Below, one piece after another: positions 48,138 through 62,286 of a stretch of DNA of 64,000 nt. The notes under the pieces were generated by a model, which saw only the letters and a list, made by a program, of their open reading frames with translations, was not told the DNA's origin and did no database searches. How positions within the stretch are numbered: the stretch's first letter is position 1; each line of letters opens with the position of its first letter. The translations under genes and the position numbers were made by a program. This DNA is from Cladosporium halotolerans (Eukaryota): positions 434,001 to 498,000 of the forward strand of contig NW_027191461.1 in the NCBI RefSeq assembly GCF_011745625.1, in the 5' to 3' direction.

Positions 48138-49360
48138 ATTAGGTGGTGCCGAGGTGCTGTTATTCTGTTTTTGACGGTGTTTTTGGCGAGTCCTGGACCG
48201 GAATGCGCGGTCACGGAGCTATTCCAGCGCGCGCTCGGAGCTGACGAGGACACGTCGGGGAATATAGCCAGCGCAGTGAGGCTCACCACGCACTCCGCCG
48301 CCGGGTGTCAGGTCACTGCGGCGTCTGGCAGCGGGCGTCCCAGCCGCGTGGGAGCTGACGGGGAATTGCTGTGGTTGCTGAAGTCCCGCCCAAGCAGAAG
48401 GCTCGGATATCGGTCGGCAGGCCGCAGCGCTGCAGAAGCTGGAAGCACAGCCTCGGTGGACGGGGATCCAGCGCACGCACGCTGTACAACAGCACAGCTC
48501 GTAAGCTTCGAGCGTGGTGTATGATAGCCTTAGGCGTAGATGACCAACAAACCCTATGTTTCGACTCCAGGAACGGGGCGGTAGCAGCAAGGCGCTGGCG
48601 GCGTAGTGTGAGGCGAGGGACAGAGGTGGCGCCGGGTGAAACATAAGCTCTGAATCCTTGAAGATGCCCGCGTGGGGGGGCTGACGATCCTTGATCGCGC
48701 TGCCCCTTTCCGCGCCGCGAGCGTCGAAGATCCTCCCGCCCGCCCGGCATAATCCCGACACACGTCCCATCCTCTCTTCAAAGCACAGAATGCAATGTGG
48801 AGTGCCAACAGCTTGGGCACCCGAGTGCAGGGCGGCAGTCGTGGAGAAGGCGGTGATGCCTGAAGATCTCAATCGATCGCTGAGCAAATCATTCCATTTA
48901 TCGAGGCTACAATCGCTACATCTACAAAAGTCGCGCACACGGACCATGATAAACATTAACTATTAACAAGCTTCCACAGCTATCATTCGTGAAACAAAGG
49001 AAACGCGCTGCGGCCCAAACCCTGGTGTCGATGTGCTGGTAAGACACTGGAGGAAGAGCTGCAAATACTCCTGACAATGCTCTCGTCCGCAATCCTATTC
49101 AGCATTCTCGATAGTCGATGGAGTCGCCTATGTGTGGTATCCTGTCATGACACGAAGGAAGGCCAGCAATGGTATGCGTGCAATGTGTGCTGAAGCTGAT
49201 CCAGAAACTCGTGCAGAGTAACCAAGGTGCGCCGCGAAAAGTATCCTGACAAGTTAGGTCGAGCTGCACACAGTAATCGAAAGAATGCCTGGCCAATCCA
49301 GTCCCACGAAAACGTCTCAGTCATAGAGCGAACCGGAGCGATGCGTCCGGTAGTCTTCAA

Positions 49361-52300
49361 TCAGTGCGAAGCCGAAGCACCCGCGTCCTCCTTCTTCCCC
49401 GACCCATGCCAAATCGCCCTCCACCCCTTCTTTGTGGGCGACGTCCCTTCCTCCCCAACACCGCTCTTGCCCCCCTTCTCCGACGAAACGCTAATCCCGA
49501 CCTTGCTCGCGATGTGCTCGAACTTCGCCTTCGCCGGCGACGGGCTCTTGGCCGGCGACGAAGCAGCCTTCTTGCCTGGGCTGGCGGGCGAGGAGCCCTT
49601 CTTCGCGTGGCGCGTGGGGATAAGCCTGGGCGACGTCGTCGGCGACAGATTGGGCGAAGTGCCGGGCGGGCTTTCGATGCCGTCTAGGGACGCGGCGCGG
49701 ACGTTGGAGTCCGCGTTGGTGGGCGCACCTGCGAAGCCGGCGGGCGGCGTCAGCAAGTGGACGTGAGGGGGTTCTTCTTCCGGGTCCATGGGCGTACCGT
49801 CGAACTGGGCGTGCGCGAAGAAGCCTGTCGCGAGGCTGGCGGCGTGCGCGACGGAGCTGGGCGTTTTCCATTCGAAGGGGCTGATGATGCGCGGGCCGGG
49901 GCGGTGGATTGTCGAGTCGATGCTGGTGAGGCTGGTGATGCGGTCGGTTGCGGGCGGAGGGCCGCTGGCGGCGCGAGGTTGGACGGGTGCGAGGGTTGGG
50001 GCGTTGGGGGCGCGGGGATGCTGGGGTGATGGGATCTTGGATGGAAACGGAGGCTTGGACATCTGGCGCGTTTCGGCCGAGGGGTATGGCATTGGTGGGC
50101 ATTCCGTCAAGGATGAAGCACGCTGTGGGAATGATGGGTGGTGTGGTCCGATGCTGCCGGCATCCTCCTGACGTTTCTGCCAGGCTCCAAGAGGGAAAGA
50201 GGTTTCCTCATGGTGGTTGCTGTTCAAGGCTGGAGTCACGAGGGCGTTCTCGTTCTGTGGAGCATAGACAGCTTGCTTGAGCGAGTCCAGGCTCTGCAGG
50301 CTGAGCTCCATTGGAGGCCTGATTGTCGTTTCCGCTTCGGTAGACCGGTTGCCCGAGTTTGTGCTCGCATGATTTGGGCTAGGGGTAGGACGGCGACCTG
50401 CAGATTTCGTGGGACTCCCGTCAGAGATCCCCATCGAGACGGAGGTGATCGGCTGCGATTTGATCAAACCGGCGCAGTACCCCTCCAGGAAGTCACCCAT
50501 GCGGTCAGCGCTGACCGGCTTGCGATAGAGGCCAGCTTGGTGCCCTTCGATCCATTCGTGAGATTTGTTGGAAAAATCGACAGTCTTGTAAGGACTGGAA
50601 GTGACGCAGAGTTCGTCCAGGCATTCATGGTCGCGAGCTGGGGAGGAACTGTTGTCGCTACAGTAGCGGCTCGGATGCTCCTCAATGAAACGCCAGACAC
50701 GTTTGTTCTTTGGGCTAAGATTGTGGGCCACACGGTCAGGCATCTGCGCGCTATTGAGATATTGGATCTGGTCGTTCCAGTTGCCGCCTTGAATGTTGAG
50801 CATAGGCGGCTTCTTGCCCGCTTCAAGGTGGTCGTTGACCGGAGTACCAGGCGGAGCGATGGGAGCTGCGTAGCCCTCATTCTGTGGTGAAGTGAACTTG
50901 ACGAAAGCGCCGTCCGGAATTTCTGGATTCCAGTTGGTGTTGTGCAGGTCGCGCTTGGGAGTGATCGGAGACTGCGATCCGGTCTGCACACGCTGGTACT
51001 GGTCGGGTTCGACATTTTCCTTGTCCTCAGACTCATCCGTCGGATCAGGATACTCGTGCTTACGCAGAGAGTAATCACGTGTGTTGCGTGGGAAGAAATC
51101 GGCTGTCCTGACGCTGGAGACACTCGAGCCATCAACAACGATCTTCTTGTCCATGGGGCTGGTGAACAGATTGTTGTTGCTGGACGCCTGTGCTGTCGGC
51201 TTAGAAGCGTGAAGCAAAGCGAGCGGTGTAGGAGCTCTGGCATCGACAGGCTTGGAAGAGGGCTTGTCATTAGCCGTTGGCTGGCGCATGCCGCTACCTG
51301 GCTTGTAGACCGGGCTCATGGGATTCAATACCGACTTGACGCTGGCGATCTGCTTCATTGTAGGATCCTTGATCGGCAACGCGTGAGACTGACGCGGCGA
51401 AGAAACCTTGGGATTAGACGAAGACGTAGACCCGTCGTGCTGAGGAATGGTATGCTCGCGAGGTTGCACACCGTTGCTTGTAACGGCCGTCACCGCAGGA
51501 ACAGCTGGAGCAGAGTTCCCGGAGTCCATGTACATGGGATACGGCGCACCCATTGAGCCGTCGAACGGCGGTGGCGGCATGAAAGCGCTCGGAGAAGCCA
51601 TTGAGTATGCCAACCCAGGATATGGTCCAGCCGGACCGGGCATGCCAGACATGGCAAAAGGCTGTCCCGGCATGGGCACAGTCGGTGCGGATCCAAAGAC
51701 TGGCTGGGCCGAAGATTGCCATGGTACCTGTGACGGCGGAGCGCCAACGGCGTTCGAATGCTGATTGCGCTCAAGGAATGAAGGAAGGCGATTCCTCGGA
51801 GGAGAGCCCGGCTGACGGTCGCGCATGGCTTTCGGAGATGTCGGTACACGGAAATCCTGCGGCATGTCTTTCAGAGACTTGAGGGCCTTGCGGACGCGAT
51901 CCATCGATGTGACCAATTCACGGCGCTTGGTGAAAAGAGCTTCTTTCGCGGTCTTCGCCATGGTCTTACCGTGCAAGACTTCGGTTTTGTCAAGGTCCTT
52001 GAGCTCTTGCTCGAGCTTTGAGTACTCAAGGTCCAATGCATTCTTCTGCGTTGCGATTGTGGGCTGCGGTGCATAGTTGTTAGTCGCTTGTGAGTGTGTG
52101 TTGCTCCTGTCACGGCCAATAGCCTCCTCGAAGGTAGGCTGGGTGGCAGCGGGAAGACCAGGTTGAGTTATGTTGAGATTCGGGGCTGGCGCGTACAGGC
52201 GAACTGCACCGTTTTCCTCGCTGAGCGGCATGACGACGCCATTGACGATCTGGCAGAGCTGGCCATTGATGTCCTGAGCAACATAGCCTTCCTGCGTGGT

Positions 52301-53253
52301 GTTGATCCACTGAGCCTTGCCGACGTGGTTCGGAGCGACTTTGATCAACGCGCCGTTGCTCTTGATGGCGCTGTAACCGAAGCGTGGGTGGCACAGTGGA
52401 GATTGCTCGCTTGGTACAATACGCCCGCCAGCAGTAACGCGAACATGCTGCGGCGAGCCGTGATGCTTGACCAAGGCCTCGATTTTTGATTTGCGGATTG
52501 AAGGGGTAGGTGAAGCACGAAGCCTCCAGGCTCCAGGTCGGGTTGATTGTCCATTGTTGACAATCTCTCCAAGCACGTGCGGCTGTTTGTGAAGAATCGA
52601 AGAAGAAGGTGCGTGTTCGGGTTGAGGATCGGCGAGGACGGCCACATTCTCATCGTGAGGCTTGTTCGCTCCGAAGTGGAGGCTGTCTAGACGGACACGA
52701 GAACGAAGAGATCGAGCAGCGAAGGACTTGGATCCACGAAGAACGTGTTCTGTCGGAGACTCGGGGGTTAGCAAAGCACGCCTTTCAAGTTCACGAGAGC
52801 TCGCAGATGGCGGGGTCTGGATGATCTTTTCCACCCAGTCTCGATGGAAGGTGAGATCTGGGTCAAGCTCATGCCAGGCCATGATTCGGTGATCATTGGG
52901 CCAGTAGCCAATGGTCGGTTTCAGGAAGATTCAGCGCGAGTGCAATGTGCCATAACGCAAATGACGCCGCGAGGATTGACCGTGGCGACCGCGGCGAGCG
53001 GGACGAGCCTCCTTGTTTGTTTACGCACGACGCATCCAACCGCGCAACCACTTCAGGCAGTGACGCAGCGCGATGCAGAGCGAAGGGTGAATCTGAAAGG
53101 AACGAAACATCGAATACCTTTGACAAGATCCGCATCTTCTCCGTCATGCTCTTCAATCGCTTCGTGAAGCTTGGGGGCTGAAGACGTCGCACGCAATCGG
53201 TGTAGCTGTTCAGCAGAATAGACCCGCCTGGCAGTCTTCTCCGCCGTAGTCAT
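49361..53253 (-). CDS. Large uncharacterised low-complexity fungal protein; exons 53253-53118 and 52749-49361
   Basis: GTATTC donor at 53117 and GCTAAC..CAG acceptor at 52750 join ..DLVK to EHVLRGSKSF.. in frame with a >1100-aa ORF. It contains an ordered-looking block HGSPQHVRVTAGGRIVP and a coiled coil. Confidence 0.7.
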
Positions 53254-57533: not shown

Positions 57534-58409
57534 CTATCGGTAGAACTCGCCCCTCTTAACGTTGACGCCGTATTCTCCAACAGCCATGCCCAGATCCTCC
57601 ATCGTGAGAACCGTCCTACCTTGTCCACCGCCGGTTCCACCGCCTCCGTATCCAGCCCTCGGTCCACCGAGAGGCGCGTTCTTTCCAGCATCTTTCTTTC
57701 CCTTGCCAGCGGCTTCGCCCTCTCCTCCGCCGCCACCGGCACCCATGCCGAATCCAGCGGCACCTCCAAGGCCAGTGAGCGGGTTGTTCGATGTGGTGTT
57801 GGTACTCCTGATGCGCGAGTACTGGTACGCGTCCGCTGCGATGTCCGCGACGAACTTCTGCGTCGCGAGCGCGAGGAGCCGCGCCAGGCGGCGGTCTGTC
57901 TGCGGAGGAGGCGGGAGGCCGGCCAGCGTGAGGTAGTAGTCTGTGACGGCGTCGGGGATGAGCGGGGTGTAGTCGTCCATCTTGCCGAGGAACTCGCGCA
58001 GGCTGGCGTCTTTCTTTTGCGGGATGCGCGGCTCGATGACAGCTTGTGGGTGGGTTGCTTCGGGGCCCAGTTGCGGCGGAGGGAAGGCGGGTGAGCCTGG
58101 GTTGGCTGTTGAGGGCCCGGCGGAGGGAGGCTGTTGGGAAGGCGGTTGCTCGTTCATTTCGTTGGCGATGGAGGTGTCGATGTCGGCGTCTGTGGGTTGA
58201 CTCGGCTGGGATGGAGGTGGTTGTGTCGCTGTCTCTTGTGTGGGTGCTGATGCCTGTGTGGATTCGGCCGCGGCTGGAGTCTCGTTTACTTGTTGAGTGG
58301 ACTGATCTGGTGCGGCTTGCTGTGTAGGTTGTTCAGGCTGCTGCTGAGGTTCCGCGGTCGGCAATGCGCCATTGGTGGGGGCAGTGGGAGGGGGATTGGC
58401 ATCTGCCAT
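57534..58409 (-). CDS. TAF10: TFIID/SAGA subunit Taf10
   Basis: [72 protein letters not shown]. Confidence 0.95.
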
Positions 58410-59010
58410 GGCTGCGATCGCGTCTTGTTGACGATATCTGTGATTGCGCCGACACGTGATCCACCGGAAGGCGTGAGTGTGTGAAGCTCGATATCCTGAT
58501 CTCGAGTGATTGGTTCCGTACGATTGGCATGTGACGCTGGCGTTGTTGAAGTCGCGAGCCCTTGGAGCAGCGCGCACCAGCAAGCGGAATGGATTCCGCT
58601 GTCTCTGCTCTTCTGCGATGGCTCTCGGGACTTGACTTCACCCGAGACTTGACACAGAACGAGGTAGGTGAGATACTTCATTGTGATTTTGCAAAATCAG
58701 TTTCAAACTGTATGGAAGACACTACAATCGTTGCATCCAAGTACCCGGACTTGTTCATAACTTTGCTTTCAAGCGATAAGTTTGCCCTCAGTCCATGGTG
58801 CCTGGTACACCGCCACGCAACCCTGGCACTACTGACGTAGCAATGCCATTTGTGAGACCTACAATACGCACATGTGTGCGTTGACATTGGGAGTCACGCG
58901 GTGGTACGCTATTTCCGCGAGATATAGGTCGGATGTGTCGGTGAAAGCTCACCATGCCCTGCAGGGTTGCTTCGCGCCGGATCCTGACGATCCCCCGTAT
59001 CTGTTCTAAC

Positions 59011-60030
59011 CTAGGCCTTAGGAGGCGGAAGGAATACATTCAACACCCTTCTGGGTATTCTTTTGAACCTCACTCCCTCCCATGTCCCAACGATCGCTCC
59101 AGCTTGGGTGACGTACACTGTGCCACCGAGCACATCTTTACCCTCTGAACGCATTCGCACGTAGCTCCGAATGTCACCCTCACATCCTGGACGGAAGCTG
59201 CTCGATATTCTTGCAGAATCCCAGCCATGGCTGATGTATGCGTTTTTCTTGGTGTCCTCGTCGCTCGCATTGCAGATAAATCCGGAGAGGTGGCAGGAGC
59301 CATCGAGGTAGTATGGCCCAGCCAGTTCGTTCTCAGATTTTTCGCGAATTTCGAGGAGTGCCGTAGCTTCCAAAGCTGTCTTGTCGATGATGACTTCGCT
59401 CATGGCTTGATAGTCACCATCATACTCCACAAACGTCTTGAAGAGCTTATAGGCTGTTTCGCGCTGGATGGTACGGACAGCGCCGGACTGTTCCACCATC
59501 GCTCTTGCCCGCAATCTCTCAATATGAGCAATGATCGAATGCTCAAGTGCCGACCATTCAGCGCGCCAAGAGGCTTCGCTCTCAAGTCGAACCGTGCAAT
59601 GAGCGAGCTCGTCGATCTTCATGCCTTCCGGAGAGATGTGACTGAAGAAGCATTGCACGGCTCCAGCAGCGTCGATGCCATCTGCAACGGCGCGCATTTC
59701 CAGCCATTGCCCCTTGCCAATTTGGGGATTCTGCGCTTTGAGTGGTTTGTCGACATGCATCTCACAGACATTCAGGCCTGGAAGCTCTTCCTTCCCACGA
59801 AGTTTCGCCAAGATGTAATTTGCTACTGTGATGGCCATGTCGCCGTACAGACCAGATGGAGTGAGGGTGACACCGTTGCACTTGTGATCACGGAGAACGG
59901 GCCAAAGCCCGGGGTCTGCGACACAAGACCTAATGGTGACAGTAGCGGATGTGTTGGCCGTGTAGGCCTCGGAAATAATGCGCTGGCATGAGGCCGAAAG
60001 GTCGTAGCTGTTTGTGCGTGTTGGCTGCAT
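59011..60030 (-). CDS. Stand-alone polyketide product-template (PT) domain protein (double hot-dog fold), 339 aa
   Basis: SCQRIISE..LRDHKCNGVTLTPSGLYGDMA..LNVCEMHVDKPL..AYKLFKTFVEY..PYYLDGSCHLSGFICN..YISHGWDS..SYVRM..GTVYV..VRFKRIPRRVLNVFLPPP matches NR-PKS PT domains end to end. No other PKS domain is in the ORF. Confidence 0.85.
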   Translation of the reverse strand: MQPTRTNSYDLSASCQRIISEAYTANTSATVTIRSCVADPGLWPVLRDHKCNGVTLTPSGLYGDMAITVANYILAKLRGKEELPGLNVCEMHVDKPLKAQNPQIGKGQWLEMRAVADGIDAAGAVQCFFSHISPEGMKIDELAHCTVRLESEASWRAEWSALEHSIIAHIERLRARAMVEQSGAVRTIQRETAYKLFKTFVEYDGDYQAMSEVIIDKTALEATALLEIREKSENELAGPYYLDGSCHLSGFICNASDEDTKKNAYISHGWDSARISSSFRPGCEGDIRSYVRMRSEGKDVLGGTVYVTQAGAIVGTWEGVRFKRIPRRVLNVFLPPPKA

Positions 60031-61566
60031 GGCTGTGCCAGGTAGTGTCACGCTGATGAACGAGAACGGAGTGAATAGGGCATATGATCTCAGTATCGAG
60101 TGGCGGCAGATCCTGCGTCAGAATTGTGGAAATACTTCAAGCATCATGAGTATTTACTCCTGGTCTTATAGGCACCCACGGTTTACAGCTAAGTGAGAAT
60201 CGGCGGTTGCATTCTGCGCTCTGGTGATCTACGTGCCATCCGGCTCCGATGCATGCTTACGGCCGGCGGATCAGCCTTCAGATCGAAAGACGGCCGCATT
60301 CGAGAAGGCAATGGCGGCAGTGATATTGCAGCAGTCCTCAAACACTTGTGCGTGAGCGTGAGGTGAGATGGACGCTGGAAAATGTCGGAGCCGCGTGAGC
60401 TGCAGGTGCCGACGTTGCAAGCCGCCGTGCCGAGCCCCACAGGCAGCGTTCAGGAACGAGTCTTGGTGGCACGGTTCCAACCTCACATTCATCCATCCTT
60501 TTGGCTATGTCAACCTGCACACATCCCTGTAAGGAGATTCAAAAACAAATGTGATAATCACTTTTTGACGCGCCAATGATAGCCGCCGTGCCTGCATCTA
60601 TCGTCGACATGCACCGCCCTGCCGCAATGAGCTCGAACTCCGGCCTTGAGCTTCTTGACGAATCACAGACAGAAATGGACATCTCTTTCGGATTACATAA
60701 CCGGTAGATGTGACGATTGTGGCGCATCTGACACGCTAGGCGCTGTAAGGCAAAGGAACTTGATCCTGGAAGTATTGGCAATATCAATCAAAGAACCTTG
60801 GCTCTCCACAAGCCAGCCCGCGGATGCAAGGATCAGGTCCAATTCAGGCGTCTCCCCTGTCGTTTACCTGGCACGCCCAATCGCGGGATAGAACGACTTC
60901 ACACAGTGTGCAGACCGCCACGTGCCTGTCAAGCTTGACTGCCGATAACGACCAGCATGTAGAACCGGATCGGCAGTAAAACGGAAGCACACCTGCAAGC
61001 GGCCTGTTTACTGCTCGAGCAGCCAACGGCTTACATGGATGCACGTCTGATCCTTGGGTTGCTCCTATCTTCTGGCCACAATGCTATCCTCGCGTGACGG
61101 CGATACTTCGCTGTTCTAGATGGCTGCCGACGTCCAGGCCCAACCAAGAGACTCCACTGTGAAGTACCTCAGATGGAGCATTGATGGGAAAATGCCCGTG
61201 AGGGTGTCCAGTTCGCGGCCAGACGTCACACATCGGTTGATGTTGCTGCTTCACCCGCGATCGCCAATCGCGCTTGACCATTGAAACAGGACGGCTCCCG
61301 CTCTTCCGCCAAATCAGGACGTGAATCTGGGATAACCACCCTTGAGGCATCCTTGCCTTTTAATCAATCTTTCGTACCTCGCACGGCTTGGTAGTCGATT
61401 GACATCATTCTGGCCAGAACAACATGTCTCACAACCAACTTCTTCAAGTGACCGACAGGGATTGGACGTGCAAACCCATTGAATTGAGCAAGTCTTGTCG
61501 ACTTCATCCCCTTTCTTCACACGGCCCAGAGACGATCTGGTGTCGATGCTTTGAGCGAGCCGTAGG

Positions 61567-61572
61567 TATAAA
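61567..61572 (+). promoter_or_regulatory. TATA box of the hydrophobin gene
   Basis: TATAAA about 100 bp upstream of ATG 61672, followed by a CA-rich leader. Confidence 0.6.
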
Positions 61573-61671
61573 GCAAGCGCTCAACTCCTGCAATCATCCC
61601 ATATCTCAACCACCACCTTCATCCTCCACGCATCACACACATCCAAATCTCAGCAATCAAACCCGGTTACA

Positions 61672-62047
61672 ATGCAGTTCACCGCCACCATCCTCGCCCT
61701 TGCCGCCAGCGTTTCTCTCGCTGTTGCGCAGACCAACCCCGCCCTTTGCGGCGGCAGAACCGCCCAGTGCTGCCAGCTTGACGCTCTTGATCTGGCCGCT
61801 GTCTCTTGCGAGAACCGTATGTGATGGAGAGTCATTTACTTCTGGGTCACGGTAGCTAACACCTTCTACAGCCAGCGGCTCGCCCCAGACCCTCGAGGAG
61901 TTCGACTCTGTCTGCGCCGAGACTGGTGTCACTGCCCAGTGCTGCGTGCTCCCGGTCGTAAGTCTCGCTCTCATCGCGCACGTTAGAAGAAAAAGGATGC
62001 TGACCCTCTTGTAGCTCGGCCAGGGCCTTCTCTGCAGCAGCCCTTAA
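61672..62047 (+). CDS. Class II hydrophobin (cerato-ulmin family); exons 61672-61816, 61872-61957, 62015-62047
   Basis: Spliced 87-aa product MQFTATILALAASVSLAVAQTNPALCGGRTAQCCQLDALDLAAVSCENPSGSPQTLEEFDSVCAETGVTAQCCVLPVLGQGLLCSSP*; pattern C-x6-CC-x11-C-x16-C-x8-CC-x10-C. Confidence 0.92.
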
Positions 62048-62286
62048 GCGATGGGTTGCGATTCAATGACAGTGGGAATGGCTTGGGAGTGGAACATCAA
62101 AGAGTTCGGAGTAATCTGAGAGAGTCCTGTCAATCCAATGCTAGCTCAACCGTGCCATAATATCTTGTACGAACATGCTAAGATACGAAAACCTCGCTCA
62201 ACTCGCATCAGTAGGGTCTTCGCAAACGCATCATAAACACGCGAAATGTAACCAATCTGCACTTATCCTGCAGATCATCAGCTCCC

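Follow-up and report, generated by a model that had tools for sequence, protein, structure and literature searches.

A conserved stand-alone product-template gene related to melanin-type polyketide synthases in Cladosporium and other Dothideomycetes

In the portions of the literature covered by our searches, product-template (PT) domains, which determine the pattern of ring closure in fungal aromatic polyketides, are encountered solely as internal domains. The locus described here raises the question of whether a PT domain can exist as a gene of its own and, if so, from which polyketide synthase (PKS) it was derived and what function it may have. A preliminary description of the window, by which we mean the whole 64-kb stretch of DNA analysed, had assigned one open reading frame (ORF) to a free-standing PT domain and had offered two readings of it, a trans-acting cyclase/dehydratase serving a PKS encoded elsewhere or a domesticated PKS fragment.

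The open reading frame, its transcription and its surroundings

The PT coding sequence is located on the minus strand at 59011..60030 and is intronless, with 339 codons and a TAG stop. As the preliminary description had claimed, the frame runs intact from ATG to TAG and encodes a protein of 339 aa. Residues 13-336 of this protein correspond to profile positions 2-329 of the 329 positions of TIGR04532 (NCBIfam PT_fungal_PKS), with a score of 277.3 bits against a cutoff of 168 and an E-value of 1.9e-82, which excludes a chance match. The profile search that had been proposed as a check thus recovers the PT model over its full length, and the borders described earlier are borne out by the alignment, in which 12 residues precede the start of the model and 3 follow its end. 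Of the Pfam families, the generic PS-DH (PF14765) alone is matched above its cutoff (35.6 bits versus 23.7), PF21089 (PKS_DH_N) staying below it with 17.5 bits versus 27, and a search of the ESM Atlas with the PT protein returned generic PS-DH clusters only.

Five in-frame stops are found in the 303 nt upstream of the ATG, the nearest being 30 codons before it, and the stop-to-stop frame extends just 29 codons upstream of the ATG. An RNA-derived contig (run X17, record 4) follows the genome without a joint over the 5′ leader (60031..60331, minus strand). The TATA-like TATAAG is present where it had been placed before, at 60170-60165 of the minus strand; since it lies within the stretch that is covered by the RNA contig of a related strain, it is only a possible core promoter. 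A 3′ untranslated stretch (58688..59010, minus strand) shares one RNA-derived contig with the 3′ two-thirds of the ORF.

Matches to the window stretch were present in 20 public runs from 15 studies, including metagenomes of air, dust, surfaces, soil, and plants. Run X17, which is about 98% identical to the window, includes a contig over the hydrophobin-like gene (61672-62090, plus strand) that is divergent from the PT gene, and in this contig two short GT..AG introns at 61817-61871 and 61958-62014 are absent. Because of these two joints, the X17 contigs can be taken to derive from RNA. Over the PT gene, the X17 contigs at 58688-59703 (record 3, with 22 other letters in 1016) and 59757-60331 (record 4) are collinear with the window and show no joint. 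They cover the PT ORF and both untranslated flanks in a near-identical strain as unspliced sequence, with gaps at 58466-58687, 59704-59756, and 60332-60506 that were not used for transcript ends; such contigs yield neither transcript ends nor expression levels. Splicing of the ORF to other exons, which the preliminary description had named as a possible objection, is not seen in the X17 contigs. Runs X15 and X19 cover the PT region like DNA, and X15, probably DNA, crosses the whole region uninterrupted.

RNA-derived cover was also observed in the apparently intergenic stretch 60507-61670, where X17 record 5 runs from 60507 into the spliced hydrophobin gene and RNA run X20 provides one 231-nt contig only, at 60601-60830. 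No coding sequence conserved with relatives was found in 60507-61670 by tblastx, and the transcript seen here could belong to the hydrophobin gene as a long 5′ leader, or else be non-coding.

The surroundings of the ORF were searched by tblastn with nine PKS proteins, five of them full-length SAT-KS-AT-PT-ACP-ACP-TE enzymes and four partial, against the whole 64-kb window. Only the PT part matches, at 59014-60042 with E-values of 1e-48 to 1e-69. Since the next best match has an E-value of 0.096, no KS, AT, ACP, or TE remnant is found in the window with the nine queries, in agreement with the earlier statement that no KS/AT lies upstream and no ACP/TE downstream of the ORF. The MAT-PT-ACP embedding is absent, stops flanking the ORF on both sides. 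Downstream of the PT gene lies TAF10 (57534-58409, minus strand), as had been stated before, followed by Mre11, and upstream lie the divergent hydrophobin-like gene and a Zn-dependent alcohol dehydrogenase (ADH) gene. Elsewhere in the window, two minus-strand ORFs of 1173 aa (49361-52882) and 245 aa (48219-48956) match no Pfam family at E <= 0.001.

Relatives, selection and evolutionary origin

About 80 proteins of similar length to the PT protein were found in Dothideomycetes. A length-restricted search yielded 93 relatives with lengths of 186-594 aa, for the most part 338-366 aa, with named members in Rachicladosporium, Oleoguttula, Friedmanniomyces, Elasticomyces, Lecanosticta, Fulvia, Cercospora, Septoria, and Tothia. 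Their automatic database names include 'iterative type I PKS product template protein', 'polyketide synthase', and 'hypothetical protein'. Without length limits, 599 matches were obtained, in which the stand-alone proteins come first and PKS-embedded PTs next at <=42% identity; the identity of the free family to embedded PTs is about 36-45%. Two assemblies of Elasticomyces elasticus carry two free-PT paralogues each (P0065/P0069, LTR17_021502 and LTR17_011710; P0070/P0081, LTR56_022473 and LTR56_015760). Among 79 metagenome loci with a PT relative, 30 are PT-only loci free of KS/AT/ACP/TE, at 36-79% identity to the query, and the other 49 are complete PKS genes at 30-45% identity. In the loci examined, the flanks of the free PT, covered over up to 10 kb, contain neither a PKS nor another biosynthetic gene. 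A recent truncation at this locus, for which a full-length PKS at the same place in relatives would have spoken, can be rejected, since the gene likewise stands alone in relatives and a PKS is absent from the locus in all 30 PT-only cases.

The ORFs of relatives are intact in all 14 cases examined, starting at or near the same Met and ending 0-12 residues past LPPPK. A few database models of relatives are longer (384-425 aa) owing to an upstream in-frame ATG. Such an ATG occurs 42 codons before the conserved start in L001, L004, and L005 (ORF starts at 367, 2009, and 9875, respectively), which explains database models of 384-390 aa, and the 42-codon extension of some relatives is not conserved in the window. 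For the free PT, each of the 16 pairs with dS below 1 gives a Nei-Gojobori dN/dS between 0.066 and 0.157; as the sequences of L010 and L011 do not differ, 13 of these pairs are distinct. The ratio below 1 that had been suggested as a check is thus observed, and the free PT gene is under purifying selection.

These data bear on the explanation that the ORF is a PKS remnant in decay or belongs, as an exon, to a larger gene that has been mis-read. Its borders are exactly those of one megasynthase domain, as such an origin would predict, and the few longer database models (384-425 aa, through the upstream in-frame ATG) could be read in the same way. Against this, the 14 intact ORFs of relatives, dN/dS values of 0.07-0.16, the lack of PKS remnants in the 64-kb window, the conserved synteny, and the location of the upstream stops inside an RNA contig collinear with the genome make this explanation extremely improbable. 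A pseudogene or an exon of a larger PKS is rejected on the same grounds.

The gene order ADH-hydrophobin-PT-TAF10-Mre11 is kept in L004, L005, L006, L011, and L012 (74-75% identity), and its ADH-hydrophobin-PT part also in L014, L015, and L023. Synteny with TAF10 and hydrophobin, another check that had been proposed, is therefore kept in relatives of about 75% identity. Six relatives' loci (62-75% identity) have about 4 kb or more of upstream sequence, and five of them (L005, L011, L014, L015, and L023) carry the hydrophobin-like gene upstream of PT, with conserved exons; the sixth, L013 (62% identity), is without it. The L023 stretch orthologous to this gene matches Pfam Hydrophobin_2 with 28.6 bits. 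More distant PT-only loci have unrelated housekeeping neighbours (Rad52, SFM1, S10 peptidase, SNARE, kinase, FAA hydrolase, and others). A functional link of PT with the Zn-ADH and the hydrophobin was considered and rejected, the synteny being found only among relatives of about 75% identity and lost at 62% and below. At L023:11225-18295 (74% identity), TAF10-Mre11 are replaced after ADH-hydrophobin-PT by a SAP/Tho1 gene and a gene for an aromatic amino-acid lyase, and a rearrangement breakpoint can therefore be placed directly downstream of the PT gene.

The origin of the free PT was addressed with an IQ-TREE tree of 74 PT regions (LG+C20+F+G4, SH-aLRT), including 18 PTs of other NR-PKSs. All free PTs and the PTs of melanin-type PKSs form one clade (SH-aLRT 99) against the 18 other NR-PKS PTs, the clade taking its melanin label from two of its members, Preu8 and the Cochliobolus miyabeanus PKS. 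The Preu8 cluster has been linked to the DHN-melanin cluster of Moriwaki 2004 (PMC9116485), and the Cladosporium fulvum orthologue, CfPks1, has been shown to be a 4THN synthase (PMC6312243). The family of the query, F1, comprises 29 rows with a support of 100 and a stem length of 0.55, and is sister (support 99) to PTs of Mycosphaerellales/Capnodiales PKSs, namely those from Cercospora, Vermiconidia, Neohortaea, Meristemomyces, and Polychaeton. Among embedded PTs, P0097 is the nearest to the free family, and its PKS type is a SAT-KS-AT-PT-ACP-ACP-TE enzyme of about 2030-2260 aa from Dothideomycetes and Arthoniomycetes, including those of Cochliobolus miyabeanus, Bipolaris, and Preussia (Preu8). 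The phylogeny against PT groups that had been called for accordingly places F1 within the DHN-melanin (T4HN-synthase type) PT clade, and it is this nesting that sustains the earlier alternative of a domesticated PKS fragment.

A second stand-alone family, F2, consists of eight rows with a support of 100, including Tothia, L053, and L054, and its neighbours within the clade are synthases of Saccharata, Venturiales, and Pleosporales. The F2-type proteins P0085, P0088-P0094, and P0103 are 321-375 aa long, the named member being Tothia fuscella (Venturiales), and the F2 locus L053:10001-10966 has no PKS within 10 kb on either side. When F1 and F2 are constrained to form one clade, the log-likelihood falls by 56.8 units and the constraint is rejected with an AU p of 0.0014, a test in which the grouping was named after a first FastTree tree had been seen. 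Judged from the tree, the Venturiales-type F2 is of separate origin from F1, out of a melanin-type PKS PT (AU p = 0.0014).

F1 has accumulated 1.64 changes per site since the split, about 10 times the 0.17 of its embedded sister group, and the difference between Cercospora and Elasticomyces is 2.07 for free PTs and 0.79 for embedded PTs. This fast divergence is in keeping with a change of substrate or role. A free PT and a full melanin-type PKS are both present in Elasticomyces, Cercospora, and Tothia, and also in the genus Oleoguttula, but there in two different strains. The PT of the co-occurring melanin-type PKSs keeps the His and Asp of the catalytic dyad. The free PT thus does not simply stand in for a cis domain that was lost, because these taxa retain a melanin-type PKS with an intact PT. 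On the whole of these data, we hold with high confidence that the gene encodes a functional, selected stand-alone PT-fold protein derived from a melanin PKS.

Fold, active site and candidate functions

The AlphaFold2 model of the PT protein, for which alignment A1 of 73 relatives of similar length served as input, is a double hot-dog with a pLDDT of 90.4 and a pTM of 0.89. Foldseek against the PDB places the PksA PT chains 3hrr, 3hrq, and 5kbz first (E about 1e-27, TM 0.81-0.87), followed by PKS DH domains (Cur DH) with TM of about 0.6, and all the matches listed are hot-dog PT/DH domains. A sequence search of the PDB likewise has PksA PT on top (E 2.5e-24). Structure prediction, as had been recommended, therefore points to a PksA-PT-like fold.

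The putative catalytic base of the PT/DH dyad is His49 (codon 59886-59884, minus strand) in H-x3-G-x4-P (H49, G53, and P58), and its partner is Asp243 (codon 59304-59302, minus strand) in D-x3-H (D243 and H247). H49 and D243 align with the catalytic His and Asp of PksA PT in 3hrq, and these two residues, like H247 and a further 15 positions, do not vary among the aligned proteins (73 of 73, with identities as low as 31%). The retention of the dyad, which had been claimed from the ORF itself, thus extends to the family as a whole. The dyad and H247 are also the same in all four groups of the tree alignment, including the melanin-type and other embedded PTs. Aligned to PksA without gaps, P58 stands nine residues after the His, at the position of a threonine that we take to be Thr1354 in the PksA numbering. 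According to PMC5386248, the Thr1354-equivalent position is Pro in all C2-C7 PT groups. Comparison of conserved positions between F1 and the melanin-type PTs gives 43 that are identical and only 2 that are conserved but different.

The candidate function that we favour, with a probability close to even, is that of a domesticated, discrete PT-type cyclase/dehydratase acting in trans on polyketides. In this proposal, a copy of the PT part of a DHN-melanin NR-PKS (T4HN-synthase type, SAT-KS-AT-PT-ACP-ACP-TE) would have become a separate gene in an ancestor of the Cladosporiales/Mycosphaerellales lineage. By analogy with PT-type chemistry, His49 would deprotonate a poly-β-keto chain, after which aldol closure of the C2-C7 type and dehydration of the chain would follow. 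The substrate offered in trans may be an intermediate on the ACP of a melanin-type or other NR-PKS or, alternatively, a released naphthol or pyrone-type intermediate. The retention of PT-type chemistry is suggested because the fold, the dyad, the hot-dog motifs, Pro58, and the 43 shared positions are conserved. Separately expressed PT domains work with other PKS parts in vitro, in a deconstruction approach that is cited in PMC9808054. Counting against a trans-acting PT is the intact cis PT in the same taxa, which leaves no obvious missing cis function. Moreover, the adjacent genes have housekeeping roles and vary from lineage to lineage, so that they indicate no partner. The fast evolution of the family likewise speaks against this function.

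The presence of an intact cis PT in melanin-type PKSs of the same taxa also means that catalysis by the free protein is not obviously needed, and a non-catalytic derivative could be envisaged in which the PT fold persists for binding or regulation. Such a protein might sequester reactive naphthol or poly-β-keto intermediates in its pocket, or dock on the PT or ACP of the melanin PKS and modulate its output. The location of the gene outside any cluster of biosynthetic genes, the fast divergence after the split, and the crystallisation of PksA PT with palmitate in its pocket, as given by the title of the PDB entry, would all be in accord with it. However, the invariance of the dyad, H-x3-G-x4-P, and D-x3-H in 73 of 73 proteins, together with two independent origins, is hard to explain without catalysis, and we consider a non-catalytic role unlikely.

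A changed substrate could be accommodated by a further explanation, namely that the protein is a hot-dog enzyme with a new, non-PKS substrate, such as a dehydratase, hydratase, or thioesterase-like enzyme acting on free acyl-CoA, lipids, or aromatics, which may be linked to cell-wall or spore-surface biology. It would suit the housekeeping neighbours, the upstream region held in common with a hydrophobin-like gene in five of six relatives' loci, the long stem branch (0.55) with a rate above that of embedded PTs, and the recognition by Pfam of PS-DH only (35.6 bits). Yet the PT-specific model scores far above its cutoff, PksA PT is the best fold match ahead of DH domains, and just 2 positions are conserved but different from melanin-type PTs, compared with 43 identical ones, all of which render a non-PKS substrate improbable.

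Returning to the trans-acting PT-type cyclase, a broader version of it can be formulated for both stand-alone families. In this version, Dothideomycete lineages would on two independent occasions have excised the PT from their melanin PKS, as F1 in Cladosporiales/Mycosphaerellales and as F2 of the Venturiales type, and the proteins would represent a natural dissociated, 'type II-like' NR-PKS cyclase. It would act in trans on ACP-bound chains of the melanin-type or another NR-PKS and might alter ring closure or the length of the released chain, or rescue derailed intermediates, in heavily melanised fungi. We put this forward tentatively, as a possibility that is open to considerable doubt.

Place in the literature and comparison with known systems

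In the article text covered by full-text literature searches, no description of a natural free-standing PT was found, although supplementary tables of PKS censuses could list such genes. In the parts of the literature that were searched, natural trans partners are described for release, ketoreduction, and enoyl reduction, and none was found there for the PT step. Two PKS censuses choose their enzymes by the presence of KS or of SAT together with PT (PMC5635595 and PMC9239057), and a free PT would be missed by such censuses because of the filtering on KS or SAT domains. A conserved stand-alone PT family is clearly of interest to polyketide enzymology. If the proposals made here are true, a conserved, selected, and transcribed stand-alone PT that twice arose from the melanin synthase would be a natural experiment in domain dissociation and a candidate tool for re-programming cyclisation in engineered PKSs. 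It could also be an unrecognised pigment or polyketide component in Cladosporium-like moulds, plant-pathogenic Mycosphaerellaceae, and rock-inhabiting black fungi.

In bacterial type II PKSs, aromatase/cyclases of the TcmN ARO/CYC type are free proteins that fold and cyclise an ACP-bound poly-β-keto chain. Their role is as proposed for the free PT, but they have an unrelated fold and belong to a bacterial, dissociated PKS context, and no TcmN-type structure is among the listed Foldseek matches of the free PT. Closer in context are the trans partners of fungal iterative PKSs, such as the metallo-β-lactamase-type thioesterases AdaB and StpB and the trans-KR TerB, which are described as discrete partners (PMC12139152 and PMC12953777). 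They likewise perform one function as a separate protein, but have other folds and serve release or reduction rather than ring closure, and their genes are usually located in or near the cluster or linked to it by experiment, whereas no partner of the free PT is indicated by its gene neighbourhood.

The DH domains of PKSs (PS-DH, PF14765) share the double hot-dog fold, H-x3-G-x4-P, and D-x3-H/Q with the free PT, but their structures match it worse than PksA PT does (TM of about 0.6 versus 0.85). To our knowledge, the PT of PksA, the norsolorinic acid synthase, is the only PT whose structure has been solved (3HRQ/3HRR/5KBZ). It is the best fold match to the free PT, with the dyad aligned. The two differ in that their identity is 23-24% and in that PksA PT is an internal domain of the C4-C9 group with Thr in place of Pro58 (PMC5386248). 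The DHN-melanin PTs ('group II', T4HN-synthase), for example those of Cochliobolus/Bipolaris, Preu8, and CfPks1, constitute the closest clade, within which the free family is nested. They share with the free PT the dyad, the C2-C7 signature Pro, and the 43 conserved positions, but are internal domains of PKSs of about 2030-2260 aa, while the free PT is a protein of 339 aa that stands apart from any PKS and evolves faster.
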